A program made the translations under genes and the position numbers. Below, one piece after another: positions 7,700 through 33,661 of a stretch of DNA of 36,096 nt (positions are counted from its first letter, which is position 1; each line of letters starts with the position of its first letter). The notes below the pieces were generated by a model. It was not told the DNA's origin, ran no database searches, and worked only from the letters and a program-made list of their open reading frames with translations. The stretch is from Candidatus Woesearchaeota archaeon (GTDB lineage Archaea > Nanobdellota > Nanobdellia > Pacearchaeales > GW2011-AR1): assembly GCA_964655925.1 (NCBI GenBank), contig CAZZNU010000002.1:1-36096 (forward strand), in the 5' to 3' direction.

Positions 7700-7748
7700 G
7701 TCGACTGTCAACTGTCTACCGTAAACTGTTTACTGTCTGCCGTCAAAT
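7700..7748 (+). repeat. Heptad array 1: 7 tandem 7-bp units of consensus GTNNAC(Y)
   Basis: GTCGACT GTCAACT GTCTACC GTAAACT GTTTACT GTCTGCC GTCAAAT, read directly. Lies between the tRNA-Glu 3' end and the ppdK TATA box. Confidence 0.9.
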
Positions 7749-7758
7749 TTCCTATAAA

Positions 7759-7831
7759 TGCTCCATCCGGGATTTGAACCCGGGTCTCTGCCTTGAAAGG
7801 GCAGTATCCTTGGCCACTAGACTAATGGAGC
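7759..7831 (-). tRNA. tRNA-Glu (anticodon UUC), no encoded CCA
   Basis: 73-nt cloverleaf folded by hand: acceptor GCTCCAT/ATGGAGC, anticodon stem CTGCC/GGCAG with loop CTTTCAA, T-arm CCGGG-TTCAAAT-CCCGG, discriminator A. Confidence 0.93.
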
Positions 7832-7854
7832 ATGTTTATTATTAATTAAAATCA

Positions 7855-7863
7855 TTTTTAAAG
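7855..7863 (-). promoter_or_regulatory. TATA-like box for tRNA-Glu
   Basis: The minus strand reads CTTTAAAAA, 24-32 nt upstream of the tRNA 5' end at 7831. Confidence 0.4.
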
Positions 7864-7885
7864 TTTAGTATTAGATAGAATGTTA

Positions 7886-8050
7886 TTATTTCTTCTTTTG
7901 TGGTCTAAAATCGTTAGCTCCACATTTTCTGCACCTTGCTTTTCCTGAAAGTATTTTTAAGTTATCTAAACGCATTTTGTGTTTACACACTTTACAAATA
8001 AATGCATTCTTGAATAATCTATTTTGTGCTACTGGTAATTTTGTCGCCAT
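7886..8050 (-). CDS. rpl40e: 50S ribosomal protein L40e
   Basis: Hand-translated 54-aa ORF that is absent from the track: MATKLPVAQNRLFKNAFICKVCKHKMRLDNLKILSGKARCRKCGANDFRPQKKK. It has the L40e pattern (R.F...IC..C ... C.KCG...R) with a C4 zinc ribbon and a basic tail. Confidence 0.85.
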   Translation of the reverse strand: MATKLPVAQNRLFKNAFICKVCKHKMRLDNLKILSGKARCRKCGANDFRPQKKK

Positions 8051-8188
8051 AATAAACTATCTAATATCTCCTTTTTAAGTTTTATGTATTGTACTCACAT
8101 AATTGAGCTATGAAAATTAAATTACTCATTTTGTTTAAGAATTATCTATTACAATAATTATTTTAAATGATTTTTGTTATTTTAGTAC

Positions 8189-10729
8189 ATGGCAGTTTTA
8201 ACTCCTGGAATGAGTCAGTATATGAAAATAAAAAATGCTAATCCTGATTGTATCATTTTTTTTAGAATGGGGGACTTTTACGAGACTTTTTTTGAAGATG
8301 CTAAATTAATTTCTAAAGAATTGGAGATAACTTTGACATCTAGAGGAAAAAATGAGTCAAAGGCGCCATTAGCCGGAATCCCACATCATGCCATTGAACC
8401 ATATTTAGCTAAATTAGTTAAAAGAGGATATAAGGTTGGGATAGTTGAACAGGTAGAGGACCCTAAATTTGCAAAGGGATTAGTAAAAAGAGAACTTGTT
8501 AGAATAATTACACCTGGGACTGTTATAGAAAATACCATTTTAGAAAGAGGATTAAATAATTACATTGCTTGTATTTCTGAAGCGGACAGATATGTTGGTA
8601 TTTCTTATTGCGATGTTTCTACAGGAGAGTTTTCCAGTTGCAAAGTTAAAAGTGATGATTTTTTGGGAGAATTAAATAGAATTTCACCTGCTGAAGTGAT
8701 AATTCCTAGTTCACTAAAGAAATCAAAAATAGTTGAATTATTAGAAGAAAGAGAATTTTTGATAAACGAGTATGATAATTATTGTTTTTATTTTCAGAAT
8801 GCTAAAGATATATTGCTAAAACATTTTGAAGTATTAAATTTAGATGGATTTGGTCTTAATGATAATTTAGTTATAGAGGTTTCCGGTGCACTATTAAGTT
8901 ATATTAAAGAGAAACAAAAAAACTCTCTTAAACACTTTAAAAAAATAAATGTGTACCAAATAAGCGATTACATGTTTTTAGATAATGCTACCATAAAAAA
9001 TTTAGAGTTATTGAAAAATACTGTTTCTAAAAATGACAATGCTACATTAATTTCTGTTCTAGATAAAACACAAACATCCATGGGGAAAAGGCTACTAAAA
9101 AAATGGATAGTTTCGCCTTTAATTCAAAAAGAAAAAATTCAAGAAAGACTAGAAGCAGTAGAGGAATTAAAAGAAAATATGATTTTGAGGTATGATTTTA
9201 TGGAATTATTAAAGAATGTGTATGATATGGAAAGATTAATTGCTAGAGTAAGCTTCGGGAACGCTAATCCCAAGGATGTTATCTCTCTTGGGAACTCTCT
9301 AAAATATGTTCCTGAATTAAAAGAATTAATAGCAAAATGTGATTCAAAAATGTTTGATAAGTTCAAAAATATCCCTGAATTAAAAGAAGCTCAAAATATA
9401 ATAATTAATGCAATTAAGGATGAGCCATCTACTCTGTTAAAAGAGGGGAACATCATCCGCCCTGGATACAACAAAGAACTTGATGACTTAAGGATTTTAA
9501 GTAGAGATGCAAGAACTTATTTAGCGGAAGTCGAAGATAGAGAAAGAGAAAAAAGTGGTATCAAAAACTTAAGGATTAGATACAATAAAATCATTGGATA
9601 TTTTATAGAAGTGACTAAAGGAAACTTGGATTTGGTTCCAGAATATTTTATTAGAAAGCAATCGCAAGTAAATAGTGAGAGATTTGTAACTGAAGAACTA
9701 AAAGAGTTAGAGATAAAAATATTAGGTGCACAAGATAAAATCTATGATTTAGAATATAATTTGTTTATGGAAGTAATAGAGAATTTGAAAGTATATATTT
9801 CAGAGATACAAGAAGTCTCTTCATGTGTTGCTATTATTGATTGCATCACCTCACTTTCAATTGTTGCGCAAGAAAAAAATTATTGCAAGCCAATATTGAA
9901 CTCTGAATCCAAAATAGAATTAATTGAATCAAGACACCCCGTTGTAGAAGCTTTTAGTCAAATTGATTTCATAACCAATGACTGTTACTTAGATAATAAT
10001 AACAGAACTATGATAATAACTGGCCCAAACATGGCCGGAAAGTCTACATATTTGCGTCAAATCGCATTGATTGCTTTAATGGCTCAGGTTGGCTCTTTTG
10101 TTCCGGCAAAATATGCAAATGTCTGTGTAGTTGATAGAGTATTTTCTAGAATTGGAGCATATGATGACTTGGTAAATCATCAATCTACATTTATGGTAGA
10201 AATGAATGAAACAGCAAATATACTAAATAATGCTACAGAAAAAAGTTTGGTCATATTAGATGAAATCGGTCGAGGAACTTCTACCTTTGATGGAGTAAGT
10301 TTAGCATGGGCTATTGCTGAATTCTTAAATAATGAAATAAAGTGTAAAACTCTTTTTGCTACTCACTATCATCATTTAAACAAATTATCTGAAAAGTTCT
10401 CTGGTATAAATAATTTTAATATTGCAGTGGAAGAATATGAAGATAAAATACTATTTTTAAGAAAAATTATAAAAGGTGGAACTGATAAGAGTTATGGTAT
10501 TCAAGTAGCGAAACTAGCTGGAATACCAGACAGTGTAATTAATTGTGCCAAAAATGTTATGAATCTAATAGAGCTTGAAGACAATATCAGTGATAAAATT
10601 GACTTAGAAAAAGAAGCAGATAATTCATTAATAGAAAAAGAAATAAAAGAAAAAATCGAGAGGGAAACTAAAGAAAAACTAACTAGAAAAATAAATGAAC
10701 TACTGAGGAGAATTGAAAATGACGATTAA
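8189..10729 (+). CDS. mutS: DNA mismatch repair protein MutS (bacterial MutS1 type)
   Basis: 846 aa. N-terminal mismatch-binding motif TPGMSQYMKIK...GDFYETF, Walker A GPNMAGKST, DEIGRGTST, and a C-terminal K/E-rich coiled tail. Confidence 0.95.
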   Translation: MAVLTPGMSQYMKIKNANPDCIIFFRMGDFYETFFEDAKLISKELEITLTSRGKNESKAPLAGIPHHAIEPYLAKLVKRGYKVGIVEQVEDPKFAKGLVKRELVRIITPGTVIENTILERGLNNYIACISEADRYVGISYCDVSTGEFSSCKVKSDDFLGELNRISPAEVIIPSSLKKSKIVELLEEREFLINEYDNYCFYFQNAKDILLKHFEVLNLDGFGLNDNLVIEVSGALLSYIKEKQKNSLKHFKKINVYQISDYMFLDNATIKNLELLKNTVSKNDNATLISVLDKTQTSMGKRLLKKWIVSPLIQKEKIQERLEAVEELKENMILRYDFMELLKNVYDMERLIARVSFGNANPKDVISLGNSLKYVPELKELIAKCDSKMFDKFKNIPELKEAQNIIINAIKDEPSTLLKEGNIIRPGYNKELDDLRILSRDARTYLAEVEDREREKSGIKNLRIRYNKIIGYFIEVTKGNLDLVPEYFIRKQSQVNSERFVTEELKELEIKILGAQDKIYDLEYNLFMEVIENLKVYISEIQEVSSCVAIIDCITSLSIVAQEKNYCKPILNSESKIELIESRHPVVEAFSQIDFITNDCYLDNNNRTMIITGPNMAGKSTYLRQIALIALMAQVGSFVPAKYANVCVVDRVFSRIGAYDDLVNHQSTFMVEMNETANILNNATEKSLVILDEIGRGTSTFDGVSLAWAIAEFLNNEIKCKTLFATHYHHLNKLSEKFSGINNFNIAVEEYEDKILFLRKIIKGGTDKSYGIQVAKLAGIPDSVINCAKNVMNLIELEDNISDKIDLEKEADNSLIEKEIKEKIERETKEKLTRKINELLRRIENDD

Positions 10730-12449
10730 AACACTAGATGAATCTACAATCAATAAGATTGCAGCTGGAGAAGTAATAGAAAGACCTGCAAACATCGTAA
10801 AAGAACTATTAGAAAATAGTTTTGATGCAGGTGCTGATTACATCAAAATTGAAATTGAAAATGCAGGTCTAGATAAAATAAAAATATCTGATAATGGGCA
10901 TGGCATGGATAAAGATGATTGCTTGCTTTCAATTAAGCGTCATACAACTTCAAAGATTAATAATGAATTTGACTTATACAATATACAATCTTTAGGTTTC
11001 CGCGGAGAGGCATTAGGTTCTATCTCTGAAGTTTCTAATATAAAAATCATTACAAAAAGGGCAGAAGATGAACTAGGAACATTAATGGAAGCAGTGGGAG
11101 GTAAAGTTACAAAAGTAGAACCTACAATTAGTAAAAGCGGTACTATTATTGAGATTACTAATCTATTTTTTAATATGCCGGTCAAGAAAGAATTCCTTAA
11201 ATCTAATGAACTTGAGTTTTCTCAAATTTTAAAAATAGTTTCTAAATATGCATTAATTAAAAAAAATGCTTCTATTATTTTAGTACATAACGGAAAAGAG
11301 ATAATTAACTCTCCTAAAACTGATAATTTCCTAAATAATGTTATGTTTATTTTAGGAGTAGAAAATGGACGAAATTTAATAGAAGTTAATTATAAGGACG
11401 AAGGAATTTCTGTTTTAGGATTTATATCAAGACCTAACCTAACGAGAGCAGACAAGAATGAACAATCTATTTATGTTAATCAAAGATATGTGAAAGATAA
11501 AATCATTAGTGATGCCGTCTATGATGCATATAAGACTTTATTATTTGTTAATCGTCATCCTATTTTTGTGTTGGATGTTAGAATAAACTCTTCACTAACA
11601 GATGTTAATGTTCATCCTGCAAAAGAAATTATCAAATTTAAAAATGAGAAAGAAGTTTATAAAAGTGTTTTCACAGCTATAAAATCTACACTCTCTAAAG
11701 CCAACCTAATCGTTGACACAAGCCTAGATGGCGAAGGAAAAGACAGTCCTGCGAAAATTTACAATATGTATTCAGATAGGCAAACTAATTTGTTCAAAGA
11801 AGATATTCAATACAATATTACAAAGGAAAATCCTACTTTTATTAAAGATATGGATTTAACGCAAAACACTTTCGGTAAATTAAAAGTTTTAGGACAAATA
11901 AACAAAACTTTTATTATTTGTGAATCTTTGGATGGACTTGTTTTGTTTGATCAACACGCTGCAGAAGAAAGAATAAATTTTGAAAAATTCACAAAAGAAC
12001 TTAGAGACAATGCAATAAAGAAACAGCAACTTTTAGAAAAAAGAATATTAGAGTTAAATCCTGAACAAAAAAATATAGCCATGTACTTCAAGAATTTCTT
12101 ATATAAGATTGGTTTTGAATTCGAGGACTTTGACACCAACACTATAAAACTTTCTACTGTTCCCGAAATATTTGGACGTTTAAAATCTACACTCTTCATT
12201 GATATACTAAATGAACTTTTAAAGGATAAAGTAGAGATAATGGATGATGAAATAGAGTCTAGAATTGCCCGGTTCTCTTGCCGTGCTAGTGTAAAAGCTG
12301 GAGATGAATTAACACACGATGAAATTTTAAATTTAATTACAAGACTTGAAAAATGCGAGAACCCCTTTTCTTGCCCACATGGAAGACCCACTATAATAAA
12401 AATATCAGTTTCTGAACTAGAAAGAAAGTTTAAGAGAACTGGATGGTAA
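10719..12449 (+). CDS. mutL: DNA mismatch repair protein MutL (endonuclease-proficient type)
   Basis: GHKL ATPase N-terminus (AAGEVIERP, ELLENSFDAG, DNGHGM). C-terminal DQHAAEERINFE (DQHAxxExxxxE), SCRASVKAGD and CPHGRPT motifs. ATG 10719 is preceded by GAGGAG and overlaps the mutS stop. The track start at 10713 is a TTG. Confidence 0.93.
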   Translation: MTIKTLDESTINKIAAGEVIERPANIVKELLENSFDAGADYIKIEIENAGLDKIKISDNGHGMDKDDCLLSIKRHTTSKINNEFDLYNIQSLGFRGEALGSISEVSNIKIITKRAEDELGTLMEAVGGKVTKVEPTISKSGTIIEITNLFFNMPVKKEFLKSNELEFSQILKIVSKYALIKKNASIILVHNGKEIINSPKTDNFLNNVMFILGVENGRNLIEVNYKDEGISVLGFISRPNLTRADKNEQSIYVNQRYVKDKIISDAVYDAYKTLLFVNRHPIFVLDVRINSSLTDVNVHPAKEIIKFKNEKEVYKSVFTAIKSTLSKANLIVDTSLDGEGKDSPAKIYNMYSDRQTNLFKEDIQYNITKENPTFIKDMDLTQNTFGKLKVLGQINKTFIICESLDGLVLFDQHAAEERINFEKFTKELRDNAIKKQQLLEKRILELNPEQKNIAMYFKNFLYKIGFEFEDFDTNTIKLSTVPEIFGRLKSTLFIDILNELLKDKVEIMDDEIESRIARFSCRASVKAGDELTHDEILNLITRLEKCENPFSCPHGRPTIIKISVSELERKFKRTGW

Positions 12450-16668: not shown

Positions 16669-17437
16669 AATTAAAATTGGTCCTTCAGGTGTTGGGCCTG
16701 TGAAGGATATTATAAATAATTTGGAAAGGTTCTCTAGAGCTGGAATTTCTGTAGCTGAGATTACATTTACTTATAGTGTCTATATAAATAAAGATGATGC
16801 CATTAAAATTAAGGAAGCTGCCGATAAATTTGGTATAGAACTTTCAATTCATGCCCCCTATTACATAAATCTTAATTCTGATGATGAGAAAAAACTTAGT
16901 GCTTCAAAGCAAAGAATAATAAAATGTTGTGAGATTGGGCATTTAATTGGGGCGAGGCAGATAGTTATACATTCAGGGTTTTATTCTAAAAAAAGTCCTG
17001 AGGAAACTTATGAAAATATAAAAAAATCTATTATAGAATTGATGGAAATAATCAAGAAAAATAATTGGGATGTAGAGTTAGCACCTGAGGTGATGGGAAA
17101 AGTTAATGTATTTGGTTCTATTGAAGAAATATCTAAGCTTGCAAGTGAGACTGGTTGTTCTTTCACGATAGATTTTGCACACATCCTTGCTAGATACAAG
17201 AAGCCTATGCTAGAAGATGTTATATTAGCATTCCCTCAAAAAAAATGGCATTGTCATTTCTCTGGAATTGAATATAACGAAAAAGGAGAAAGAAAACACA
17301 TTAATACTGAAATATCTGAATGGAAAAATTTGTTAGATAGATTAAAAAAATTAGATAAAGAAATTAATATTATTAACGAATCTCCAAATCCGTTTGAGGA
17401 TGCTGTGATGGGAATAAAGTTACTTGGGGAGCAGTAA
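16661..17437 (+). CDS. nfo: AP endonuclease family 2 / endonuclease IV-like TIM-barrel protein
   Basis: 258 aa. Metal-ligand pattern HAPYYINL, VIHSG, APEVMGK, IDFAHI and HCHFSGIEY, as in archaeal endonuclease IV-like proteins. Confidence 0.75.
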   Translation: MSKIKIGPSGVGPVKDIINNLERFSRAGISVAEITFTYSVYINKDDAIKIKEAADKFGIELSIHAPYYINLNSDDEKKLSASKQRIIKCCEIGHLIGARQIVIHSGFYSKKSPEETYENIKKSIIELMEIIKKNNWDVELAPEVMGKVNVFGSIEEISKLASETGCSFTIDFAHILARYKKPMLEDVILAFPQKKWHCHFSGIEYNEKGERKHINTEISEWKNLLDRLKKLDKEINIINESPNPFEDAVMGIKLLGEQ

Positions 17438-17475
17438 ACTGTTTACTGTCAACTGTATACGGTCAACTGTTTACC
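17434..17475 (+). repeat. Heptad array 2: 6 tandem GTNNAC(Y) units filling a convergent gene gap
   Basis: GTAAACT GTTTACT GTCAACT GTATACG GTCAACT GTTTACC. Overlaps the nfo-like stop (17435-17437) and the giant gene stop (17471-17473). Confidence 0.9.
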
Positions 17476-20400
17476 CTAATCTTATTATTACACTTCCGCC
17501 GGTAGACGATATAGTAATATTTCCAGAAGTTGTGTTTATTACAGGATGATTTGTGCCTGTATTATCTACATCAATTAGTAATCCACCTTTTGTACCATTT
17601 ACATGGAACTTTTTTTGTGGTGTAGTTGTGCCGATTCCAACATTGCCCGTTGAACCAAGAGTTACTATCCTTGTATCTGCACCAGCACTATTAACAAGAT
17701 TAAAAGTCATAGATCCGTCTAATAGTCTTATATAAGAAGCTCCAATCGAAGTATTCTCTCTCCCCCATGAACCGGTATAACGCCAATTATTACTTATGCC
17801 TGCACCCATATAGGTCAAACCGGGTTCACTTGCCCATAAATATAAATCAGAATTTGTATTAGCATTATTTTCAGCTTTAAGATGTATTTGTGAAGTAGTA
17901 TGAGAACCTTGTATATTCAATAATTTATCAGGGTTACTTGTCCCAATTCCTACTCTATCCGTATTTGAATTAACAAATAAAGTATTCGTGTCAACAGTTA
18001 GGTTTTTAACAAAAACATTATTCTCAGCAAATGTATTCGCTTTGTTAATAAACGCTACATTAGTCATATTTCCTGTCCACCTAGGGTCTGTCTCTGTCTT
18101 TATACTAGATGAATTAACTGCTTGAAGTTGGGAATAAGTTACAGCATCGGTGGCTGAAGAACCGCTCGCTAGTCCTGTGATTTTATTGGAATTCATTGCT
18201 AAAGTTCCCCTAATATTGACTGTGCCATTTACATCTAATGTTGATGTTGGGGATATTGTTCCTATGCCTACTCGTTTGTTTTGAACTCCGCCTGAACCGT
18301 CGGATTCTGAGTAAATAGAAAGTATATTTTCGCTATCTACTCTAAACACATATCCTTCAGGGGTGCCAGTTAATGCTGCTGACGAAACTGGCATATCCAT
18401 TGCTGTTACAAGTCCTGAATCTTCTGAAAAAGATAGCGTTCCTATATTTAGTGTTCCACCAACATCAATTTCGTTATTAGGATTTACTTTAAACATATTA
18501 ATCACTCCTGTTCCTGAAGAATCGACTGCACTTATCCATTCATTATTAGCAATCTTTAATTTATCAAACGAGCCCAAGTTTGCAGAAATGTTGGTAACTG
18601 TTAGATTATCTTTGATGATAACACTACCACTAACATCTAATTTGGCAGCTGGTACTGATGTCCCAATTCCTACATTGCCAGATCCTAATAGCGTCATAGC
18701 AGTTGTTCCTTTCGGGCTTAGTGTTATCTTATTTGTATTAGAATTATATCCTGTTGAGATATCTAAAGAATTTGAACCAGATCCACTATAAGTTATTTTG
18801 GCATTTTTATTGCTTCCACCATCTTCTGTGAATGATGTAAATGTTAATACTGTAGAACTACCTGTTCTTCCTCTTATATGCAAACTGCTAGTTGGCACGG
18901 CTGTCCCAATACCGACTTGTTTATTTGTGGCATCGATAAATAAAGCATTTGTGTTAAATGATTGATTATATGCTCCAAACGAATTCGCTTTATTAACAAA
19001 AGCTACATTAGAAAAATTACCTGTCCATCTAGGATCTGTTTCAGTCTTTATGCCAGATGAATTGACAGCTTTAAGTTGAGAAAAAGTCACAGCCTCTGTG
19101 TCTGAAGAAGCATTTGCTAAGCCTGTGATTTTATTAGAGTTCATCGTTAAATTACCTTCTACTGAAACATTACCTACAATGTGTAGATTTGCATTAGGAG
19201 TAGCAGTTCCAATGCCGACCCTTCCAACATTTGTTAAATTCATAGCATTTAAATTAATACTTTTTACCGCATTTTCATAAGGAACAAAATCTCCACTGAC
19301 AATATTACTAACTGCTTGAAGCTGAGCATAGGTTACAGCATCAGTGCCAGAAGAACCATTTTTTAGACCTGTTATAACATAATTGTTCATTGTTAGATTA
19401 CCTTCTACTGAAACATTGCCTGCAACATGCAGTTTTGACTTTGGAGAGCCTGTTCCAATGCCTATATTCCCTGCATCTGTAATCCTCAACCTTTCTTGTG
19501 GTGAATTCCCTCCAGTTTTTATCAAAAAATCACCTGCACCTCCACTTCTTCTGATTCCACCAATTTCTGGGCCATATCCATCTGATGTACTTGTTCTAAA
19601 TTTAATAAAAGCGCCACCATCTTCATTAGTAGCATCGTTTGCATGCACTCCTTGCAATGTGATGTAATTTCTATGTGTTCCAGCAGTACCTGTTGCAGGA
19701 AAATTTAAAGTACTAATTGTAACGGTGCCATTAGTGGTTAGTGCCTGATTTCCTAAATTCACTGATTTTGAAGCACCTGTATAAGGTATAAAGTCACCAC
19801 TAACAGTATTGCTAACTGCTTGGAGCTGAGCATAAGTCACAGCATCATAAGGTGAAGAACCGTTAGATAAATTAGTAATTTTTTTATTGTTCATTATAAT
19901 ATTTCCAGTAATATTTAACCCTGCGAACTTTGGACTACTTGCTATTGTAACATTTTGGTCCATTGCATAAAGTTTATTTGCACCTTGCCCGGTATTTATT
20001 GTAGTAGCATTCAATGTTCCAACCGAGACCGATCCAGTTGTGGTTAGTCCTTGACCGCTTAAGTTTATTGGTTTTGTCGCACCTGTGTATGGAATAAAAT
20101 CAGACAAATCTTGGTTTGTGTACATTCTTAGTTTCCCATTTTTAAATTCAAAAATAGGATGCTCTATATTTAACCTAAAAGAAGTTGTTGCTGTATACAT
20201 CATTCCTAGCATAATATAGATGTATCCATCCTCAGTTGTAGGTAAGTTTTGAGTTAAATAATCTCCACTAGTTGTTCCTGCACCAGCTAAAACAAATAGG
20301 CCATCATTATTTATTGTACCTTTAAGATAAATTGGCTTATGCGCTGTCCATCCACTCTGAACATTTTGATTATATCTAAAATTTGTGCCCATAGAAACAG

Positions 20401-22909
20401 ATGAATAAATATAAGAAGTTGAAGTAGCGGCGTTTGCAGCAACGGTAGCAGTCGTATAATATGCTAAAATGGGACTATTAACAACAAAAGGTTGGGAGTT
20501 AACAGTCTTTGCATTAGCTGATGTACTATCTCCAATAACAATTGGATGATACCTTCCATCTGAAGCCATCATTAAAAGTTTATATCTCGTTATTTGTTCT
20601 CCTGCAATTACCCCAGAACCACTCCATCTAACTGTATATGATTCTGTTCCATCTACATAATCTGCCCATACCCAACGACCAACTCCATCTATTGTGGTGT
20701 ATGTTAAAATTGCTACTGTGTTAACAGGTAAATGTGTCGTAAAAGCTCCTGCATTTCTGTAAACTTGTATTGCACCTAAATTATTTATGTTTAAAGTGGT
20801 CGTAGAAGCTCCTGCTATTCCTATTTTATAAGCTATTGTTAATCCATTATAATAGTTTTTTATATCTGAATTTGTTCCTAACCATGTTCCTGCAGTTGTT
20901 CCAGATCCTTCAACATAATATAGGCTATCACTAACACTTGCAAAATCACTTGAGTTTAACCCATCTAATAAGTCCGCATCTAAACCACTACCACTACCAT
21001 CATTACCTTCGTGCCAAATTTTATTCCCCTCAACTGCTATTGTTCCCGCAGATATCCTAGTTATTGTAGTATCCGATGCGTGTCCTATGTTAATTCCTGT
21101 AAATTGTGGGCTACTAGATGTTGTAACATTTTGATTCATTGCATAAAGTTTATTTGCACCTTGCCCGGTATTTATTGTAGTAGCATTCAATGTGCCAACC
21201 GAAACCGATCCAGTTGTGGTTAGTCCTTGACTGCCTAAGTTTATTGGCTTTGTTGCACCTGTGTATGGAACAAAATCGCCACTAACAGTGTTACTAACTG
21301 CTTGGAGCTGAGCGTAAGTCACAGCATCGGTGGCCGAAGAACCGTTAGATAAATTAGTAATCTTTTTATTATTCATTATAATATTTCCAGTAATATTTAA
21401 CCCTGCAAACTTTGGACTACTTGCTATTGTAACATTTTGGTCCATTGCATAAAGTTTGTTTGCGCCTTGTCCAGTATTTATTGTAGTAGCATTCAATGTG
21501 CCAACCGAAACCGACCCGGTTGTACTTAACCCTTGACCGTTTAAGTTTATTGGTTTTGTTGCACCTGTGTATGGAACAAAATCGCCACTAACAGTATTAC
21601 TAACTGCTTGGAGCTGAGCGTAAGTCACGGCATCGGTGGCCGAAGAACCATTCGATAAGCCAGTGATTTTATTGGAATTCATTGCTAAAGTTCCCCTAAT
21701 ATTGACTGTACCATTTACATCTAATGTCGATGTTGGAGATATTGTTCCTATGCCTACTCGTTTATTTTGAACTCCGCCTGAACCGTCGGATTCTGAGTAA
21801 ATAGAAAGTATATTTTCGCTATCTACTCTAAACACATATCCTTCAGGGGTGCCAGTTAATGCTGCTGACGAAACTGGCATATCCATTGCTGTTACAAGTC
21901 CTGAATCTTCTGAAAAAGATAGCGTTCCTATATTTAGTGTTCCACCAACATCAATTTCGTTATTAGGATTTACTTTAAACATATTAATCACTCCTGTTCC
22001 TGAAGAATCGACTGCACTTATCCACTCATTATTAGCAATTTTTAATTTATCAAACGAGCCCAAATTTGCAGAAATATTATATATGCCTAATGTTAAATTT
22101 TTGGTTGCTCCTAAGTATGGAAGGAAATCATCTGTAATTGACGTACTAATCGATTGAAGTTGAGCATAAGTTACAGCATCAGTAGCTGAAGAACCATTCG
22201 CTAAACCAGTGATTTTATTAGAATTCATTGCTAATAACCCCGAGATGGACGCATTTCCATCAACTGTTAATTTATAAGTTGGAGAAGTTAATCCTATTCC
22301 GACATTTCCAACATTAAAATAAATGTTATTTCCGGAAGTTATCCATTGGGAGGCTCCTTCAATTCCTGACAAATTTAAGTTTATTAACTTTGAACCATCT
22401 CCTATGAAATAGGAAGCTGTTATATTCCCTGTTGTTATAAGATTTTGCCCTGATAAATTTACCTGAGAATTAAACTCTACTCCAGAAATTGTAACATTTT
22501 GGGCTCTGACGGCGTACGGCGTCGATGTTAAATTTATTCTGGGCGTCATTTCAGCATCAGAACCTACCTTTATTCCCAAAAAATATTGCGTATCTGCTTT
22601 TATCTTATCAATACCATCTAAAATTACATCATATATGCCTTCACTATCTGGTGTTATTGTTTTAAGTTTTGTATACACGGGAGTGCCACCGGTGTAAGAA
22701 TTATAAATAGAAAAATTTATGTTAGTTGCAGTTGTTATCGGAGCTCCATCAGAATTTGTAAGTTTACCATGGATATTAAATGTTTGAGGTATAGCACTAA
22801 CGACAGTAAGTAAAAATAAAAAAAGTAACACAGTAGTCAAGTGTCCGAGGTAAGATATCTGAAGTCCGACAGTTAATTTCTTCTTTATCATGTTTCCTCT
22901 TTTGTTCAT
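17471..22909 (-). CDS. Giant secreted repeat protein, tail-fibre/adhesin-like (1812 aa)
   Basis: N-terminal signal/TM (LTTVLLFLFLLTVVSA). 7 copies of NKITGL-x-GSSATDAVTYAQLQ-type motifs. 9 copies of (G)xVGIGTxxPxxxLxVxG motifs. KIWHEGNDGSGSGLDADLLDG motif as in phage tail fibres. ETDPRW motifs. No C-terminal anchor. Confidence 0.9.
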   Translation of the reverse strand: MNKRGNMIKKKLTVGLQISYLGHLTTVLLFLFLLTVVSAIPQTFNIHGKLTNSDGAPITTATNINFSIYNSYTGGTPVYTKLKTITPDSEGIYDVILDGIDKIKADTQYFLGIKVGSDAEMTPRINLTSTPYAVRAQNVTISGVEFNSQVNLSGQNLITTGNITASYFIGDGSKLINLNLSGIEGASQWITSGNNIYFNVGNVGIGLTSPTYKLTVDGNASISGLLAMNSNKITGLANGSSATDAVTYAQLQSISTSITDDFLPYLGATKNLTLGIYNISANLGSFDKLKIANNEWISAVDSSGTGVINMFKVNPNNEIDVGGTLNIGTLSFSEDSGLVTAMDMPVSSAALTGTPEGYVFRVDSENILSIYSESDGSGGVQNKRVGIGTISPTSTLDVNGTVNIRGTLAMNSNKITGLSNGSSATDAVTYAQLQAVSNTVSGDFVPYTGATKPINLNGQGLSTTGSVSVGTLNATTINTGQGANKLYAMDQNVTIASSPKFAGLNITGNIIMNNKKITNLSNGSSATDAVTYAQLQAVSNTVSGDFVPYTGATKPINLGSQGLTTTGSVSVGTLNATTINTGQGANKLYAMNQNVTTSSSPQFTGINIGHASDTTITRISAGTIAVEGNKIWHEGNDGSGSGLDADLLDGLNSSDFASVSDSLYYVEGSGTTAGTWLGTNSDIKNYYNGLTIAYKIGIAGASTTTLNINNLGAIQVYRNAGAFTTHLPVNTVAILTYTTIDGVGRWVWADYVDGTESYTVRWSGSGVIAGEQITRYKLLMMASDGRYHPIVIGDSTSANAKTVNSQPFVVNSPILAYYTTATVAANAATSTSYIYSSVSMGTNFRYNQNVQSGWTAHKPIYLKGTINNDGLFVLAGAGTTSGDYLTQNLPTTEDGYIYIMLGMMYTATTSFRLNIEHPIFEFKNGKLRMYTNQDLSDFIPYTGATKPINLSGQGLTTTGSVSVGTLNATTINTGQGANKLYAMDQNVTIASSPKFAGLNITGNIIMNNKKITNLSNGSSPYDAVTYAQLQAVSNTVSGDFIPYTGASKSVNLGNQALTTNGTVTISTLNFPATGTAGTHRNYITLQGVHANDATNEDGGAFIKFRTSTSDGYGPEIGGIRRSGGAGDFLIKTGGNSPQERLRITDAGNIGIGTGSPKSKLHVAGNVSVEGNLTMNNYVITGLKNGSSGTDAVTYAQLQAVSNIVSGDFVPYENAVKSINLNAMNLTNVGRVGIGTATPNANLHIVGNVSVEGNLTMNSNKITGLANASSDTEAVTFSQLKAVNSSGIKTETDPRWTGNFSNVAFVNKANSFGAYNQSFNTNALFIDATNKQVGIGTAVPTSSLHIRGRTGSSTVLTFTSFTEDGGSNKNAKITYSGSGSNSLDISTGYNSNTNKITLSPKGTTAMTLLGSGNVGIGTSVPAAKLDVSGSVIIKDNLTVTNISANLGSFDKLKIANNEWISAVDSSGTGVINMFKVNPNNEIDVGGTLNIGTLSFSEDSGLVTAMDMPVSSAALTGTPEGYVFRVDSENILSIYSESDGSGGVQNKRVGIGTISPTSTLDVNGTVNIRGTLAMNSNKITGLASGSSATDAVTYSQLQAVNSSSIKTETDPRWTGNMTNVAFINKANTFAENNVFVKNLTVDTNTLFVNSNTDRVGIGTSNPDKLLNIQGSHTTSQIHLKAENNANTNSDLYLWASEPGLTYMGAGISNNWRYTGSWGRENTSIGASYIRLLDGSMTFNLVNSAGADTRIVTLGSTGNVGIGTTTPQKKFHVNGTKGGLLIDVDNTGTNHPVINTTSGNITISSTGGSVIIRLG
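18177..18589. repeat. Intragenic long repeat A (copy 1 of 2)
   Basis: 413 bp aligned by eye to 21663-22075 with about 7 mismatches. The offset is exactly 3486 bp (1162 codons, in frame). Confidence 0.9.
19795..20101. repeat. Intragenic repeat C, dispersed copy (~307 bp)
   Basis: Aligns by eye to 21277-21583 (offset 1482 bp, in frame) at roughly 90-95% identity. Encodes SGDF(V/I)PYTGATKPINL..GQGL.TTGSVSVGTLNATTINTGQGANKLYAMDQNV...NKKITNLSNGSS..DAVTYAQLQAV. Confidence 0.85.
21101..21583. repeat. Intragenic repeat C, tandem copies (partial ~176 bp plus full ~307 bp)
   Basis: 21101-21276 is a partial unit. 21277-21583 is a full unit homologous to 19795-20101. Confidence 0.8.
21663..22075. repeat. 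Intragenic long repeat A (copy 2 of 2)
   Basis: See 18177-18589. The track's antisense ORFs 18363..18791 and 21849..22157 share an identical 75-aa N-terminus, which independently confirms the duplication. Confidence 0.9.
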
Positions 22910-22952: not shown

Positions 22953-23043
22953 GGTTGACGGTAAGCGGTAAACAGTTGACAGTAAACGGTTGACAGTTGA
23001 CAGTAAACGGTTGACAGTTGACAGTAAACCGCATGCCGTAAGC
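22953..23043 (-). repeat. Heptad array 3: 13 tandem units in the opposite orientation, with a 21-bp higher-order period
   Basis: The plus strand reads GGTTGAC GGTAAGC GGTAAAC AGTTGAC AGTAAAC GGTTGAC AGTTGAC AGTAAAC GGTTGAC AGTTGAC AGTAAAC CGCATGC CGTAAGC. The 21-bp unit AGTTGACAGTAAACGGTTGAC occurs twice perfectly, followed by a partial third copy. Confidence 0.92.
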
Positions 23044-24431: not shown

Positions 24432-25238
24432 ATGAACATAATTAAAGCATCTGGTGCTATAGAGTTGTTTGATTCCAAAAAAATTTATTATACAATAAGA
24501 GAAGCTGGTGCTTCTAATAAATTAGCAAAAGAAGCAGTGAGAGCAGTTCGTTCTATTATATATGACGGTATTACCAGTGAGGAAATATTGAAATTTTTAT
24601 TAAATTTTTTAAAAAAAGAAAAAGGCGTTTCACAGAGATATAATTTAAAAAAAGCTGTGATGTCCCTTGGTCCCTCTGGGTTTCCTTTCGAAAAGTATTT
24701 TGCTAAAATATTGGATTTATATGGATACAAAACAAATGTTGGAGTACGACTGAAAGGGAAAAGAGTACTACACGAAGTAGACATTGTAGCTATTAAGAAT
24801 AAAAAAGCTATGATAGAATGTAAGTATCACAACCAATCTGGTATTTCTACTGGTTTACAACCCGCAATGTACACATATGCTCGGTTTTTAGATTTAAAGG
24901 GACACAATTTTAATTTCCCTTGGCTCGTAACAAACACAAAGTGTTCTATTGACGCCCAAAACTATGCTGAGGGGGTTGACTTGAAAATTACGAGTTGGAA
25001 CTATCCTCCTAACGAAAGTTTACTCAAACTAATAGAGAATAAAAGAATCTATCCTATTACTATTTCAAACACTTTAAAAAAATATGAACTGGAAAAGTTT
25101 TTTGACGCTAACATCATTACAGTAAAAGATTTATTAAGAATAGACATAGATAAAATTGTTAATCTTACCGGAATAAATAAAAGTAGAATTCAGAAAATTG
25201 TTCAAGAAATTAAACTTATAAATGATAATGTTTCTTAG
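24432..25238 (+). CDS. ATP-cone domain protein fused to a PD-(D/E)xK nuclease-like core and a C-terminal helix-hairpin-helix
   Basis: The N-terminal ~90 aa is ATP-cone-like (IKASGAIELFDSKKI...). The core HEVDIVAIKNKKAMIECKYH gives a D...ExK pattern. The C-terminus ITVKDLLRIDIDKIVNLTGINKSRIQKIV is HhH-like. Confidence 0.7.
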   Translation: MNIIKASGAIELFDSKKIYYTIREAGASNKLAKEAVRAVRSIIYDGITSEEILKFLLNFLKKEKGVSQRYNLKKAVMSLGPSGFPFEKYFAKILDLYGYKTNVGVRLKGKRVLHEVDIVAIKNKKAMIECKYHNQSGISTGLQPAMYTYARFLDLKGHNFNFPWLVTNTKCSIDAQNYAEGVDLKITSWNYPPNESLLKLIENKRIYPITISNTLKKYELEKFFDANIITVKDLLRIDIDKIVNLTGINKSRIQKIVQEIKLINDNVS

Positions 25239-28681: not shown

Positions 28682-29006
28682 CTTCAAAATATAATGATAA
28701 TCTGTTTATATCTTCTATGCACATACTTACCATTTCATTTAATTCTCTGTCACTTATAAAATCTATTATTTCCCGTGGTATACTCACTGCATAGCTGTTC
28801 CCAACGAAACGCAATTTGACTTTAAAGTTTTTTCCTTTTATTTTTTTATATTCTTCGTATCCTCTTAAATCTTCCGGATGGAATATTTTATTTGGACATT
28901 TTGGGCATTTTACTGTTCTAATTTTGAATCCATCTTTAATTATTGTCGCTGGATGCATTTTTTCGTTGCAACTTTTACACAATATTATATTATCAAATAT
29001 GTCCAT
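28671..29006 (-). CDS. Zinc-ribbon plus AbrB/SpoVT-like (swapped-hairpin) small DNA-binding protein
   Basis: 111 aa. CKSC...CPKC ribbon, followed by [20 protein letters not shown], typical of AbrB/MazE-fold domains. The stop overlaps the cdc48 ATG by 11 nt. Confidence 0.65.
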
Positions 29007-29056
29007 GTATATACAGACATGTATATACTTTATAAATATTTTTGTTATGAAATATA

Positions 29057-30064: not shown

Positions 30065-30106
30065 TCTAAAATATGTTTTTACTTATTTAAATTAATTTCT
30101 AAAAAT

Positions 30107-31471
30107 CTATGTAATTATTCTAAAAAGCCAGATTAAAGTCATTCCTAATAAAATTAAAAATATTCCTCTACCTATTACTTTTACCGTTTTTTTAGACGTT
30201 TCTTCTTTTGTGAATTTACCGATTGCTAATTCCAAAAATCTACCACCATCTAGCATTCCCCACGGTAGCATATTAAATAGCCCAACTAATAGATTAATTA
30301 TCATTATCCACCAGAATAAATAATAAATAAACATAGCTACATCTTTGTTTATTATAGAGTCGTACTCATCTGGATTTATTGTTAACATAACCTTAGAGAG
30401 TACTCCGCTCATCCCTGATTTACCTTTGGCATAACTTGCAACACCTAAGTATGCCTTTGAAGAATTCAGGGGACTAGAGGCAAATGTAATATTGTAATTT
30501 TCATACTCACCTTCAAAATAAGTCGTTACTATTGCATTTTCTCCTGGTTTATAGCTAGACAAGTATAATGCAAGACTTTCTTGATTGTGAACACCATAAT
30601 CGTCTATATATTTTATTACACCTTTAATCTGATGCCTAAACGCAGGAGTATCTTCATATGCATAAATTAGACTTGATTCGTTTAAGAATTCTATACTTTC
30701 CTTTGGAATAAAATAATTAGATTCTTCTATTTGGATAATCCCATAATCACCTTCAACTAATATATTGTCCATTTGTGATGTATCGATAATACTTATAGTG
30801 TAAGTATCAAAAGAATATCCTGATGGAGTAAATATTAATGCAACATATCCAGTTATTATTACAAAGAATGTTAAAAATACCATCACATTAGAGAAAGCTC
30901 CTGCTCCCAAAGTAGCCATTTGATTCACCCTTTCTTTTTTTCTAAAGTCCTTATCATCTTGTTCTACAAAAAAACCGAGTATTGGACCTAAGAACATAAA
31001 TCCGGTTGATTTTATTTTTGTCTTGGAATATTTCATTAAAACACCGTGGGCAAATTCATGAAATATACTAACCACAATAATCGCTATTAAAAAATAGGTG
31101 AAATAAAATGGTGGGAAATAACTTTTCATTCCAAATAATTCAGGGAAATAAGGGATTAGTGGTGCAATTGGAGGGGCTTTGATTTGATCTGTGATTGTAG
31201 GATTTGAAATATACACCCACAAACTTTGTATCAATAGAGAAATCATTGCCAGCATCAAGATAAATCCGATAGAAATTATAACATATCTTAATACACCTAT
31301 TATCTTATGATATTTCTTATCTATTTTCTCCATTAATTTTACGCCAAACTGAGTTCTATACATAAAAATAATGCCATCTCGTTGAGTGTGTCTTTTGTTT
31401 TTTACAAGGAGGAATACAACACCTATTACAAATAATATTAAAAAACATATATCGAATATATAAAAATTCAT
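30107..31471 (-). CDS. Site-2 protease family (M50) membrane metalloprotease
   Basis: HEFAHG zinc motif inside a TM helix, a central PDZ-like insert, and C-terminal NMLPWGMLDGGR (NxxPxxxxDG). Confidence 0.88.
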   Translation of the reverse strand: MNFYIFDICFLILFVIGVVFLLVKNKRHTQRDGIIFMYRTQFGVKLMEKIDKKYHKIIGVLRYVIISIGFILMLAMISLLIQSLWVYISNPTITDQIKAPPIAPLIPYFPELFGMKSYFPPFYFTYFLIAIIVVSIFHEFAHGVLMKYSKTKIKSTGFMFLGPILGFFVEQDDKDFRKKERVNQMATLGAGAFSNVMVFLTFFVIITGYVALIFTPSGYSFDTYTISIIDTSQMDNILVEGDYGIIQIEESNYFIPKESIEFLNESSLIYAYEDTPAFRHQIKGVIKYIDDYGVHNQESLALYLSSYKPGENAIVTTYFEGEYENYNITFASSPLNSSKAYLGVASYAKGKSGMSGVLSKVMLTINPDEYDSIINKDVAMFIYYLFWWIMIINLLVGLFNMLPWGMLDGGRFLELAIGKFTKEETSKKTVKVIGRGIFLILLGMTLIWLFRIIT

Positions 31472-31535
31472 TTGGACACCTTTATTATAAAGGATTTTTT
31501 CTTTTTATAAATGTTCGCTATTCTTTTTTAAAATA

Positions 31536-33560
31536 TCATTCGTTTATTCTTTTCAAGATATCCTCTAACTTAGATTTGTTTAACTCTATGTCTCTTATTT
31601 CTGACACACTATATATATCTTGATTATTAATCTTATTTTCTTTGATGACCTTTAAATCTCTAATTAGTTTTTTTCTCACCACATCGGAGACTAATATCTT
31701 TGAACTACTTAAAGAAGCCATCTTCTTTGATAGAATGAAAATATCGCTGACGCCTGTATATTTTAAAATTCCTTTTTCTTTTCCCGCTATTATATCTCCT
31801 GTATGAACTGATATTCCATAATCTAGTTTGTGTTTATACTTTCTGTTATGATTCGCTAATTCTCTATTAAGACTAAAAGCTATCTGAACGGCCGTCATAT
31901 CATTTTTATAAGTTCTTGTGATTAGTGGGTTTAATATCATAAAATAATATTCACCATCAATATCTATTGTCAATTTCGGACTTATTTTTTTTATCATTTC
32001 TATTAGGTCAGCCTTAACATTGTCTGGTAAATCTTTATGATTCTTTATTAAAAGTGTAATAATAGATGAACTCATTTTCTCTCCATTTAGTACCAATGTT
32101 GATTCTGCAGTTATGTTTTTATCTTGTGATATGAATTCTTTTTTTCTAGATACATTATGTTTTTTATTTTTCACCCTAGAAAAATTGATATTATTTTTTA
32201 TTTTTTTGAAGAAGCCTAAATTTGACTTTTTATTTGGTTTATCTTTAATTTTTTTAAGATTTTTATTCACGAAATAAAAACCAACAACTACTATTGCCAG
32301 AAAAACAAGAGTTAACAATTTATTTAAATTGAATTTGACAGCGCCATCACCTATACTTTTCACACTTATAGCGTTACCCGTCAAAAAGGTATTCCCAGAA
32401 TATTCTTCATGCCCATCTGAGTTTATGGAAATAGAATAATCTCCATCGGGGGCTTGTAGATTAAATTGTTTAGTTGAAGACTTTGGTAGGTTTAATTGGA
32501 ACGAATAACTTTTATTTGCTATTGTTATATTCAGTTCTTTGTCATATAGGCAGTTTCCAATATTTTTTATTTCTAATAGTCCTCCTATTATTTCATATTG
32601 TAGTTTAGGTGAGCATTTCATGTCGACTTCATATTTATCTGAAATCGTACTTCCAAAAAACGCATGTATATTCCATTTTCCCATACTGTCGTTAGACTCA
32701 AACTCTATATCATAATAATCATCTGAATTTATGCTAAATGTTCGTAGTTCTCCAGAAGGGGATTCCAGATAAACTATAATATCTTCATCAATTTTTTCTC
32801 CAGCTTGATCTAGAAGAATTGGATTTATTGTTAGCTTTTGGTTTGGATTTAATTCCAAGTCTGATATTGATAAATCTATCTTAGTAGGCCTTTGTGAAAC
32901 AACAAAGTATTCTAATTCCGTATTGGAATTTAAAATATTACCTTCTGAATCTTGATTGTAAACCATTACTGATAAAATATATGTTCCTGATTTTTGAGTT
33001 TCATTTGTTTTAACCTCTATACTAGCTCTCCCTAAAATCAAGTCTCCACTTTTGTCTGAAAAATTAGACACCTCATATTTTCCTGTGAAGTTCTCTCCAT
33101 TCGCTGTTGTAGAATAAATATCTAGAAGAATTATTTCTCCTGGTGCATATGTTAGCTTATTTAATGAAGACTTTAAACTTATTTTATCTGTTATCTCAAA
33201 AGTTTTACTTTTAATACTTTCTCCACTCAACGAAGCCACAATGTTACAATTACCTACTATTTTTGTTAAATTGGAGATTTCTAAATCTTTCTGGTTTAAT
33301 GTCTTAAATGGGAGAGAGTATGACTGGGGTGAGTCTGGAGAAAATGCACTAGATGGTATATTCAATAAATTTATCGTATCATTTTTACATTTCAAATCTA
33401 CCTTCAAACTTCCTTCTCCTCCGCCTCTTATTCCACTTAAACTTATATGCATTCTTTCTCCTAAATTGTAAACACTTTTAGGTTCAGCTAACTCCATTGC
33501 AGGACTTACAAAAGTTAATAGTACGAGAAATAATAGCGTTAATGTTATAATTTTGTCCAT
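31536..33560 (-). CDS. Single-pass receptor-like protein: signal peptide, ~400-aa beta-rich ectodomain, TM, Lys-rich linker, cytoplasmic degenerate nucleotide-cyclase-like domain
   Basis: 674 aa. Signal LTLLFLVLLTFVSPA and TM LLTLVFLAIVVVGFYFV. The C-terminal YGISVHTGDIIAGKEKGILKYTGVSDIFILSKKMASLSSSKILVSD resembles the class III cyclase core (IGIHxGxVxxG...Y..G..VN.A.R......IL(V/I)S). The canonical first metal-binding Asp is not evident. Confidence 0.6.
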   Translation of the reverse strand: MDKIITLTLLFLVLLTFVSPAMELAEPKSVYNLGERMHISLSGIRGGGEGSLKVDLKCKNDTINLLNIPSSAFSPDSPQSYSLPFKTLNQKDLEISNLTKIVGNCNIVASLSGESIKSKTFEITDKISLKSSLNKLTYAPGEIILLDIYSTTANGENFTGKYEVSNFSDKSGDLILGRASIEVKTNETQKSGTYILSVMVYNQDSEGNILNSNTELEYFVVSQRPTKIDLSISDLELNPNQKLTINPILLDQAGEKIDEDIIVYLESPSGELRTFSINSDDYYDIEFESNDSMGKWNIHAFFGSTISDKYEVDMKCSPKLQYEIIGGLLEIKNIGNCLYDKELNITIANKSYSFQLNLPKSSTKQFNLQAPDGDYSISINSDGHEEYSGNTFLTGNAISVKSIGDGAVKFNLNKLLTLVFLAIVVVGFYFVNKNLKKIKDKPNKKSNLGFFKKIKNNINFSRVKNKKHNVSRKKEFISQDKNITAESTLVLNGEKMSSSIITLLIKNHKDLPDNVKADLIEMIKKISPKLTIDIDGEYYFMILNPLITRTYKNDMTAVQIAFSLNRELANHNRKYKHKLDYGISVHTGDIIAGKEKGILKYTGVSDIFILSKKMASLSSSKILVSDVVRKKLIRDLKVIKENKINNQDIYSVSEIRDIELNKSKLEDILKRINE

Positions 33561-33580
33561 AAATTACCTTACCATAATTA

Positions 33581-33590
33581 GTATTTAAAG
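33581..33590 (-). promoter_or_regulatory. TATA-like box upstream of the receptor-like gene
   Basis: The minus strand reads CTTTAAATAC, 21-30 nt upstream of ATG 33560 and 8 nt from heptad array 4. Confidence 0.35.
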
Positions 33591-33598
33591 ATTAGGCT

Positions 33599-33661
33599 GT
33601 CAACTGTCAACTGTCAACTGTCAACCGTATACTGTTAACTGTTAACTGTTCACCGCTCACC
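33599..33661 (+). repeat. Heptad array 4: 9 tandem GTNNAC(Y) units
   Basis: GTCAACT GTCAACT GTCAACT GTCAACC GTATACT GTTAACT GTTAACT GTTCACC GCTCACC. The last unit overlaps the rtcB stop (33657-33659). Confidence 0.92.

Follow-up and report, generated by a model that had tools for sequence, protein, structure and literature searches.

Dispersed arrays of GTNNAC(Y) heptanucleotides at transcription-unit ends in a compact archaeal genome

Results

The window, that is, the whole stretch of 36,096 nucleotides (nt) analysed here (positions 1 to 36,096 of contig CAZZNU010000002.1, assembly GCA_964655925.1, from a Candidatus Woesearchaeota archaeon), belongs to a compact, low-GC, DPANN-like archaeal chromosome and contains four head-to-tail arrays of 7-bp units with the consensus GTNNAC(Y), hereafter A1 to A4, which are the subject of this report. 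Among the proteins it encodes are Kae1, RtcB, a Tyw1-like radical SAM enzyme, CDC48, PPDK, a SUF system, MutS/MutL and an L40e-like protein, and TATA-like boxes (TTTAAATA or TTTATAAA) lie 26-30 nt ahead of many start codons, while a distant homologue of one of the proteins bears the name Candidatus Pacearchaeota; we infer that the chromosome is of DPANN archaeal type and that its transcripts are leaderless. The arrays comprise 7, 6, 13 and 9 units, 35 in total (Table 1), and their coordinates, unit counts and orientations agree with those read from the sequence alone in an earlier note (the original prediction). Tandem Repeats Finder independently detects each array, at periods of 7, 14 or 21, and describes A3 by a period of 21 with 3.6 copies, 92% matches and a score of 124.

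Table 1. Arrays and principal neighbouring features of the window
Feature	Position	Strand	Description
Array A1	7700..7748	+	7 units: GTCGACT GTCAACT GTCTACC GTAAACT GTTTACT GTCTGCC GTCAAAT
tRNA-Glu(UUC) gene	7758..7832	-	ARAGORN; Rfam RF00005, 68.9 bits
Array A2	17434..17475	+	6 units: GTAAACT GTTTACT GTCAACT GTATACG GTCAACT GTTTACC
Giant surface-protein gene	17471..22909	-	1812 amino acids; six YadA-stalk repeats, phage T7 tail-fibre N domain
Array A3	22953..23043	-	13 units, opposite orientation; 21-bp higher-order repeat GTTTACT GTCAACT GTCAACC
Array A4	33599..33661	+	9 units: GTCAACT x3, GTCAACC, GTATACT, GTTAACT x2, GTTCACC, GCTCACC

The two-unit pattern GTNNACYGTNNAC matches 24 times in the window against 0.17 matches expected from dinucleotide-preserving shuffles, with none of 100 shuffles reaching 24 and the highest shuffle count being 2. 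A separate scan for strict in-phase GTNNAC runs returned 5, 6, 9 and 8 units for A1 to A4, respectively, and no further in-phase GTNNAC pair in the rest of the window, so that the other intergenic gaps and the coding sequence are free of arrays, as had been claimed. Beyond its borders, the 10 kb upstream (contig L256) hold no in-phase GTNNAC pair and the 3.5 kb downstream (L121) no array of at least three units. The description of the arrays as G+C islands likewise holds: their G+C content is 0.38-0.47, as compared to 0.10-0.24 in gaps of 18 bp or more that have no array (with the exception of a single 28-bp gap, whose value is 0.36), while the window as a whole ranges from 25 to 39%.

A1 and A4 are identical across independent Logan assemblies of several sequencing runs (the A1 sequence is the same in L256 and L257, that of A4 in 7 Logan contigs) and are therefore not assembly or adapter artefacts. 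By inspection, no sequence is common to the flanks of the four arrays, which consist purely of tandem units and lack the features of a miniature inverted-repeat transposable element (MITE) or insertion element. The outcomes singled out beforehand as damaging, namely artefact, identity to a MITE or placement inside genes, are not borne out in the window, with A1 and A4 identical in independent assemblies, flanks unshared and all four arrays intergenic. Several further exclusions made in the original prediction also stand: the arrays are not ORFs (open reading frames); their contiguous 7-bp units without spacers are not CRISPR; and an ORB or origin element is contradicted by the absence of orc1/cdc6 among the Pfam matches in the window, by the presence of four sites in 36 kb and by an unrelated motif.

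Across the 35 units, G1 is conserved in 35, T2 in 31, A5 in 33 and C6 in 34, and the variable positions are 3, 4 and 7, the last of which is occupied 21 times by T, 11 times by C and 3 times by G. Seventeen unit types occur, the commonest being GTCAACT (9), GTTTACT (5) and GTCAACC (4), in the order given before. Differences between adjacent units at positions 1 to 7 number 0, 4, 19, 20, 4, 1 and 16 (chi-square p = 3e-9). Degenerate units (GCTTACG, GCATGCG, GCTCACC, GTCTGCC and GTCAAAT) sit at array edges, the last two of those named closing A1, whereas the interiors show runs of identical units (A4) and 14- or 21-bp higher-order repeats, and the 21-bp period of A3 is a recent higher-order duplication. 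Such edge decay together with internal homogenisation is typical simple-sequence-repeat (SSR) behaviour. A1 and A2, on the other hand, have no identical neighbouring units, and there G1 is kept in 13/13 units and C6 in 12/13. Neither the number of units (6-13) nor their order reveals an architecture common to the arrays.

All four arrays are intergenic, and A1, A2 and A4 begin 0-9 bp from the 3' end of a gene, A3 in its divergent gap being the exception. A1 is placed 9 bp past the 3' end of the tRNA-Glu gene and upstream of the PPDK gene, and the sense strand of the tRNA reads it in the purine-spacer orientation (R-GTNNAC). A2 occupies the entire gap of a convergent gene pair, with both stop codons inside its terminal units (TAA 17435-17437 in GTAAAC and minus-strand TAA 17471-17473 in GTTTAC); the gaps of the other four convergent pairs in the window measure 0-9 bp or the genes overlap. 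A3 separates two divergent genes, the giant surface-protein gene (minus strand) and a DUF4190 ORF starting at 23073 (plus strand), and takes up all the room between their TATA-like TTTAAATA boxes, which lie at -38 and -29 from the two ATGs. Finally, the last A4 unit contains the RtcB stop codon, a minus-strand TGA at 33657-33659, and from this stop codon the array extends until 11 bp short of the TATA box of ORF 31536-33560. Tabulated against stop codons and TATA boxes, as had been proposed, the arrays sit at transcription-unit ends, in the stretch between a stop codon and the stop codon or TATA box that follows.

Beside a gene 3' end, the purine-rich array strand is the sense strand of the upstream gene (A1 and A4). 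A1, A2 and A4 flank housekeeping genes (tRNA-Glu, PPDK, RtcB and an AP endonuclease), and A2 and A3 bracket the giant surface-protein gene in inverted orientation at its 3' and 5' end, respectively. Subtraction of the arrays leaves gaps of 100 bp (A1), 0 bp (A2), 72 bp (A3) and 33 bp (A4). All but the first resemble array-free gaps of their kind in this genome, the 0-bp and 33-bp values matching its convergent (0-9 bp or overlap) and tandem (28-64 bp) gaps. Because the array-removed gaps are of ordinary size and the G+C content of the arrays is higher, the arrays look like G+C-rich additions to minimal AT-rich gaps.

In each unit, G1-T2 is complementary to A5-C6, and every array is therefore able to self-pair in any 7-nt register, with a predicted fold that is a long hairpin with a mismatch at each seventh position. 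The original prediction had denied the arrays a stable hairpin, which is correct for single-stranded DNA, where folds are weak (z -0.25 to -2.2; A3, -14.7 kcal/mol, z -2.0), and for A1, but not for the RNA of the other three. The A3 plus-strand RNA is predicted to fold at -33.3 kcal/mol (z -3.9 vs. shuffles); the A4 minus-strand RNA, which is the RtcB sense strand, at -22.2 kcal/mol (z -3.75, with 0/200 shuffles as stable) vs. -9.4 kcal/mol (z -0.2) for the opposite strand; and the A2 plus-strand RNA at -13.3 kcal/mol (z -2.4). The purine-rich strand is stable as RNA because GUUGAC pairs with itself via G.U, and this same strand has stop codons in all three frames, as compared to 0-1 per frame in the other. 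No hairpin-plus-T-run terminator site coincides with any array and no T-run follows one, so the arrays are rightly set apart from canonical terminators; nor are there sigma-70 promoters at the arrays beyond TTGACA-like chance matches inside GTTGACA units.

In two assemblies (L260 and L261, positions 959-1028; SRR27197526 and DRR784974), A3 has 10 units rather than 13, one 21-bp repeat fewer, with 0 mismatches in 3.3 kb of flanks. This is the only length variant among the arrays. Two contigs (L262 and L263) start inside A3, and one (L127) ends inside A4.

Relatives were found through homologues (44-54% identity) of the lineage-specific ORF674, a neighbour of A4, and comprise five syntenic or related loci with a total of 87.6 kb; the protein collection searched contained no closer ones. 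In three of them (L128, L130 and L133) RtcB is 62-67% identical to that of the window. The pattern scan of related genomes that had been suggested returned no in-phase GTNNAC pair and no comparable period-7 array in these 87.6 kb, where about 7 arrays would be expected at the density of the window. In one relative (L133) RtcB directly adjoins ORF674, with no array between them, and in two others (L128 and L130) a DUF1003 gene lies between the two. The arrays are missing from all five relatives and are therefore specific to this lineage; array-free relatives include the assemblies GCA_964612895.1, GCA_964518625.1 and GCA_964470085.1.

Similar arrays are nonetheless widespread. A scan of GTDB (one genome per species) for four in-phase GTNNACY units gave at least 120 matches, against about 35 calculated to occur by chance in the whole collection. 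The genome matches listed, which do not reach other archaea or the window's own genome, are all bacterial and come from Cyanobacteriota, Acidobacteriota, Bacteroidota, Gemmatimonadota, Planctomycetota, Chloroflexota, Patescibacteria and other phyla, and GTTGACT, GTCAACT and GTTAACT arrays dominate the cyanobacterial ones. A more specific GTTTAC-GTCAAC heptad pattern, with mixed units, has at least 120 matches in JGI metagenomes, and the four-unit GTNNACY pattern at least 120 in viral contigs.

The following counts refer to the genome and metagenome matches listed. By crude ORF calls, 92 arrays lie in tandem, 50 in convergent and 13 in divergent settings, and 33 in coding sequence. For arrays no more than 3 nt from a stop codon, the purine-rich strand is the sense strand in a ratio of 35:6, as in A1 and A4, a bias that fades with distance from the stop and reverses to 17:33 at 41-100 nt and 13:29 at 101-300 nt. 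This orientation switch suggests inverted pairs, with a stop codon followed by a purine-strand array and then by its inverted partner. In addition, of the 89 bacterial arrays within 40 nt of a stop, 68 fold more stably on the sense strand.

Arrays of 8 units occur at 9 loci in viral contigs for GTNNACY, and at 15 and 6 loci for the control heptad patterns GANNTCY and CANNTGY, with a similar mix of homogeneous and mixed arrays. As the control patterns are equally common, the wide occurrence reflects the general abundance of heptanucleotide SSRs, and a universal GTNNAC-specific system spanning bacteria, archaea and viruses was rejected on this ground. A RAYT-like spreader beside the arrays was also sought, and an all-against-all BLAST of 817 neighbouring ORFs gave no transposase candidate; the recurrent families among these ORFs are winged helix-turn-helix-PRTase (wHTH-PRTase) proteins, common SDR, ABC and NusA genes and a few 23S_rRNA_IVP genes.

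Two of these families merit separate description. In eight low-GC bacterial metagenome loci (L143, L151, L155, L168, L182, L196, L219 and L234), a short dyad array, GTTTAC.GTTTAC.GTCAAC.GTAAAC.GTAAAC, overlaps the sigma-70-like promoter of a gene for a winged-HTH and PRTase-CE protein of ~325 amino acids; the eight proteins have identities down to 32%, and the array, which consists of the same heptads, probably serves as an autoregulatory operator. Of the five genes for 23S_rRNA_IVP proteins (PF05635; four-helix-bundle, Avd-like) in the 1.6 Mb of bacterial loci with arrays, four lie within 36 nt of an array (L015 7492-7917, L021 2282-2632, L119 1565-2071 and L097 4798-5208), and that of L119 has arrays on both sides.

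Several neighbouring genes of the window are worth recording in their own right. The giant surface-protein gene, with a G+C content of 0.35-0.39 that exceeds that of its surroundings, contains a 306-bp internal tandem repeat at 21096-21683 (1.9 copies, 87% identical), and it may encode a host-attachment protein of an episymbiotic archaeon. A complete MutS-MutL pair at 8189-12449 (plus strand) has all five MutS domains and a MutL with its C-terminal dimerisation domain; to our knowledge, bacterial-type mismatch repair is uncommon in DPANN archaea. A 54-residue zinc-ribbon ORF at 7886-8050 on the minus strand (MATKLPVAQNRLFKNAFICKVCKHKMRLDNLKILSGKARCRKCGANDFRPQKKK) resembles ribosomal protein L40e and falls in the large gap between tRNA-Glu and mutS, below the 60-residue ORF cut-off. 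Next to kae1, the 268-residue ORF 24432-25238 (plus strand) unusually combines an ATP-cone with a restriction-endonuclease fold of Mrr type and, at the C-terminus, an AF1548-like/HhH domain. The SUF set at 1436-5060 consists of a SufC-like ABC ATPase, a NifU-like scaffold, SufB/D and the class-V aminotransferase SufS, and its divergent gap (3846-3863) of just 18 bp shows that promoters are very compact in this genome.

Discussion

The account that we favour, and to which we assign a probability of roughly 0.6, is that A1 to A4 constitute a genome-specific family of GTNNACY heptanucleotide SSRs that are propagated by slippage, self-complementary, tolerated at transcription-unit ends and endowed with at most a passive structural effect. 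Slipped-strand mispairing or unequal exchange would add or remove 7, 14 or 21 bp at a time, and the self-complementarity of GT..AC would be the property that is kept, which would account for the constancy of positions 1, 2, 5 and 6 and the drift of positions 3, 4 and 7. An array would be tolerated in the orientation that ends translation and folds in the upstream transcript, and its effect, if there is one, would most likely be passive, either as a fold-back 3' cap or spacer on that transcript or as a cruciform-prone spacer between promoters. The arrays would not be the operators of a dedicated regulator.

It is important to note that a number of observations weigh against this account. The sample is only four arrays, and A1 and A4 have the same length in all assemblies, which are 99.99-100% identical and essentially clonal, so that slippage has to be inferred; the A3 that is shorter by 21 bp may represent a genuine length allele or the collapse of a de Bruijn loop at k=31. 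No significant fold is predicted for A1, whether as DNA or as RNA. The array that folds best, A3, is situated between the TATA boxes of a divergent pair and is probably untranscribed. Of the variant units, just 2/6 keep the 2/5 or 1/6 pairing, so that the fold is not supported by covariation. A neutral SSR in a genome of 31% G+C should, moreover, lose G and C fast, and the retention of G1 and C6 in A1 and A2 thus argues for selection, which a binding protein explains as well as self-pairing does. Lastly, the spread of one motif family to separate loci is unexplained, here as in bacteria.

Indeed, the conservation pattern is equally well explained by GT..AC self-complementarity and by a binding site, and the arrays could instead be platforms for a small dimeric protein of ribbon-helix-helix (RHH) geometry, similar to omega or MetJ, with one dimer per GTNNAC and a filament that acts as a boundary, roadblock or regulatory element. 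Cooperative binding by an unknown protein is what the original prediction had suggested, and its equation of three units (21 bp) with two helical turns is a matter of arithmetic. The palindromic hexamer core with constraint on exactly four positions, the contiguous 7-bp units that equal the heptad spacing reportedly used by omega, the ends of three of the four arrays 1-13 bp from a TATA box and the G and C kept against AT pressure in A1 and A2 would all fit such a platform, and the putative operators of the eight wHTH-PRTase loci suggest that heptads can be used in this way. We nevertheless consider it rather doubtful, since no RHH family match was found among the ORFs scanned in the window or in its downstream neighbour L121, A2 has a stop codon at either end and no promoter close by, the decayed edge units and recent 21-bp duplications are the behaviour of an SSR, and the numbers and order of the units follow no common architecture. 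Given the absence of arrays from the five relatives, any cognate protein would also need to be a recent, lineage-specific acquisition. Candidate binders within the window were tried and rejected: the 54-residue ORF is L40e-like, and ORF 28671-29006 has only a sub-threshold MazE/AbrB-like stretch. An ArsR-type wHTH gene lies outside the window and is present also in an array-free relative. By analogy with such filaments, the arrays might be boundary elements on which a small lineage-specific protein polymerises, one dimer per 7 bp, to form roadblocks or insulators between tightly packed transcription units, with the number of A3 units tuning the giant adhesin, a proposal that we regard as unlikely. 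Were it true, it would be the first function assigned to a dispersed heptanucleotide repeat family in any prokaryote, and the tuned adhesin would be one needed for attachment to the host cell.

A function at the RNA level, in which the G/U-rich strand forms a long interrupted 3' hairpin that defines or protects the end of the upstream transcript, in the manner of REP elements in E. coli, and insulates the next promoter, appears quite unlikely to us. It draws on the difference between the two strands of A4 in predicted stability, on the purine-rich strand being the upstream sense strand at A1 and A4 and, among the bacterial matches listed, on the 68/89 arrays no more than 40 nt from a stop with the stabler sense strand and on the 35:6 orientation at up to 3 nt from the stop that reverses past 40 nt. 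A1, however, is without a significant fold, the strongest fold belongs to an array that is probably untranscribed, only 4/6 core positions pair unless NN is self-complementary, and no array is followed by a T-run, on which archaeal termination depends. The orientation bias is also explicable by stop codons, with an array at a gene end tolerated only if it ends translation. Very unlikely, in our estimate, is a phase-variation switch in A3, whereby expression of the giant adhesin-like gene would change with the heptad count upstream of it. No other array is as long or as homogeneous as A3, which abuts the TATA box preceding the gene for the 1812-residue YadA-stalk protein and is 21 bp shorter in two assemblies with perfectly matching flanks, and the hmw1A adhesin gene of Haemophilus influenzae is said to undergo phase variation through upstream heptanucleotide repeats. 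Yet the shorter form is perhaps an assembly collapse, with breaks inside A3 in two further contigs. The array, being located upstream of the TATA box, leaves the core promoter spacing unchanged, and the other three arrays flank housekeeping genes.

Finally, GTNNAC is a type II recognition sequence (MjaIV/Hpy8I specificity), and clusters of target sites for a restriction-modification system or an orphan methyltransferase of this specificity could be envisaged, all the more as GTNNAC outside the arrays occurs at 0.55 of the zero-order expectation. Against a Markov expectation of 67.5, however, the 57 sites observed represent a weak depletion, TANNTA (0.60) and CGNNCG (0.27) are equally or more depleted, the window has no methyltransferase match and a single nuclease-like one (a weak Mrr_cat in ORF 24432-25238), and the strict 7-bp phasing and the pyrimidine at position 7 are left unexplained. 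Avoidance of GTNNAC restriction sites was rejected, the depletion being weak and non-specific, and we hold target-site clusters to be extremely improbable.

Whatever their nature, the arrays modestly extend a known, functionally unexplained phenomenon. Their interest lies in the setting: a very compact, AT-rich genome leaves almost no room for neutral DNA, and the arrays stand out in it as G+C-rich insertions. If they are neutral products of slippage, such repeats invade even highly streamlined genomes; if instead they bind a protein or shape transcript ends, the small genome is a tractable place to find out.

Among the systems with which the arrays can be compared, the RHH protein omega of pSM19035 reportedly binds 7-10 contiguous 7-bp heptads (WATCACW), which function as operator and centromere alike. 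The arrays share with these sites the contiguous, spacerless heptads, their presence as several arrays per replicon and a location upstream of promoters, a likeness of geometry only: the sequence WATCACW differs and is non-palindromic, and the RHH gene of omega adjoins its plasmid sites. The REP and BIME elements of enterobacteria are single palindromes of 35-40 bp spread by RAYT transposases. They resemble our arrays as imperfect palindromes at gene 3' ends and between convergent genes, with REP transcripts forming 3' hairpins, but REPs are not phased 7-bp tandem units.

Closer parallels come from dispersed heptanucleotide repeat families, which have been noted in bacteria since 1990. The cyanobacterial STRR3, reportedly described by Mazel et al. 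in that year, is said to be CAACAGT, or GTTGACT on the other strand. As in the STRR families, the units of the window are tandem, spacerless and 7 bp long at many dispersed intergenic loci, and GTTGACT itself fits GTNNACY. Cyanobacterial arrays, however, are for the most part homogeneous and can be far longer in many cases, whereas those of the window mix 17 types in 35 units, and the STRR host is a bacterium with a large, repeat-rich genome in contrast to the compact archaeal genome considered here. Among the longer SSRs, heptanucleotides were reported to outnumber every other class in most of the prokaryotic genomes examined, with polymerase slippage proposed as their explanation (Mrazek 2007, as cited in PMC4679880 and PMC4692102).

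The most detailed descriptions concern Xanthomonas, where ~185 GGGAATC-type arrays consist of heterogeneous units with positions 1-4 and 6 conserved (PMC4692102). Arrays of Xanthomonas and Nostoc are 89-93% intergenic and lie on average 28 nt from the upstream ORF; in Xanthomonas, the distance to the downstream ORF is 160 nt, and 16% occupy convergent and 7-8% divergent gaps, with many inverted pairs (PMC4692102). The Xanthomonas repeats flank housekeeping genes (Rehm et al. 2015, PMC4692102), array length in the two genera is not conserved between species, and the authors could not identify a role (PMC4692102). The arrays of the window are like these GGGAATC and GGGGA(C/T)T families in their heterogeneous units, partly conserved positions, intergenic location near upstream 3' ends, under-representation in divergent gaps and potential for non-B structure. 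They differ in that this structure is a G-quadruplex or i-motif there and a self-complementary fold-back here, and in having 6-13 units and no close inverted pairs, as compared to mostly 4 units and frequent inverted pairs.

TAACTGA repeats, in turn, occur in marine Beggiatoaceae, cyanobacteria and some Bacteroidetes, sporadically and with some close relatives lacking them, and stem-loops are predicted for a related heptamer, TAACTGT (GTTAACT) (PMC4679880). Common to that family and to ours are one favoured heptamer per genome, an intergenic location and a sporadic phylogeny (MacGregor 2015, PMC4679880). In the Beggiatoaceae genome studied, however, the sets are mostly 2-6 near-perfect copies just upstream of start codons in forward orientation, a placement that suggested translational control (PMC4679880), whereas the arrays of the window abut stop codons and TATA boxes.

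The original prediction had assigned the arrays to no described class. This stands for archaea, where our literature search found no report of such arrays, but not for bacteria, where the class of dispersed heptanucleotide SSRs fits (PMC4692102, PMC4679880). Like its members, the arrays are spacerless 7-bp tandems at several loci, have partly conserved positions, are intergenic with a 3' bias and are unconserved in relatives. Archaeal cases seem rare, because the GTDB matches listed are all bacterial, and the family of the window is possibly the first archaeal one. Taken on sequence grounds, A1 to A4 are thus best regarded as a putative archaeal counterpart of the bacterial dispersed heptanucleotide families, of the long SSR (LSSR, 5-11 nt) or STRR type, and not as a new class of element.

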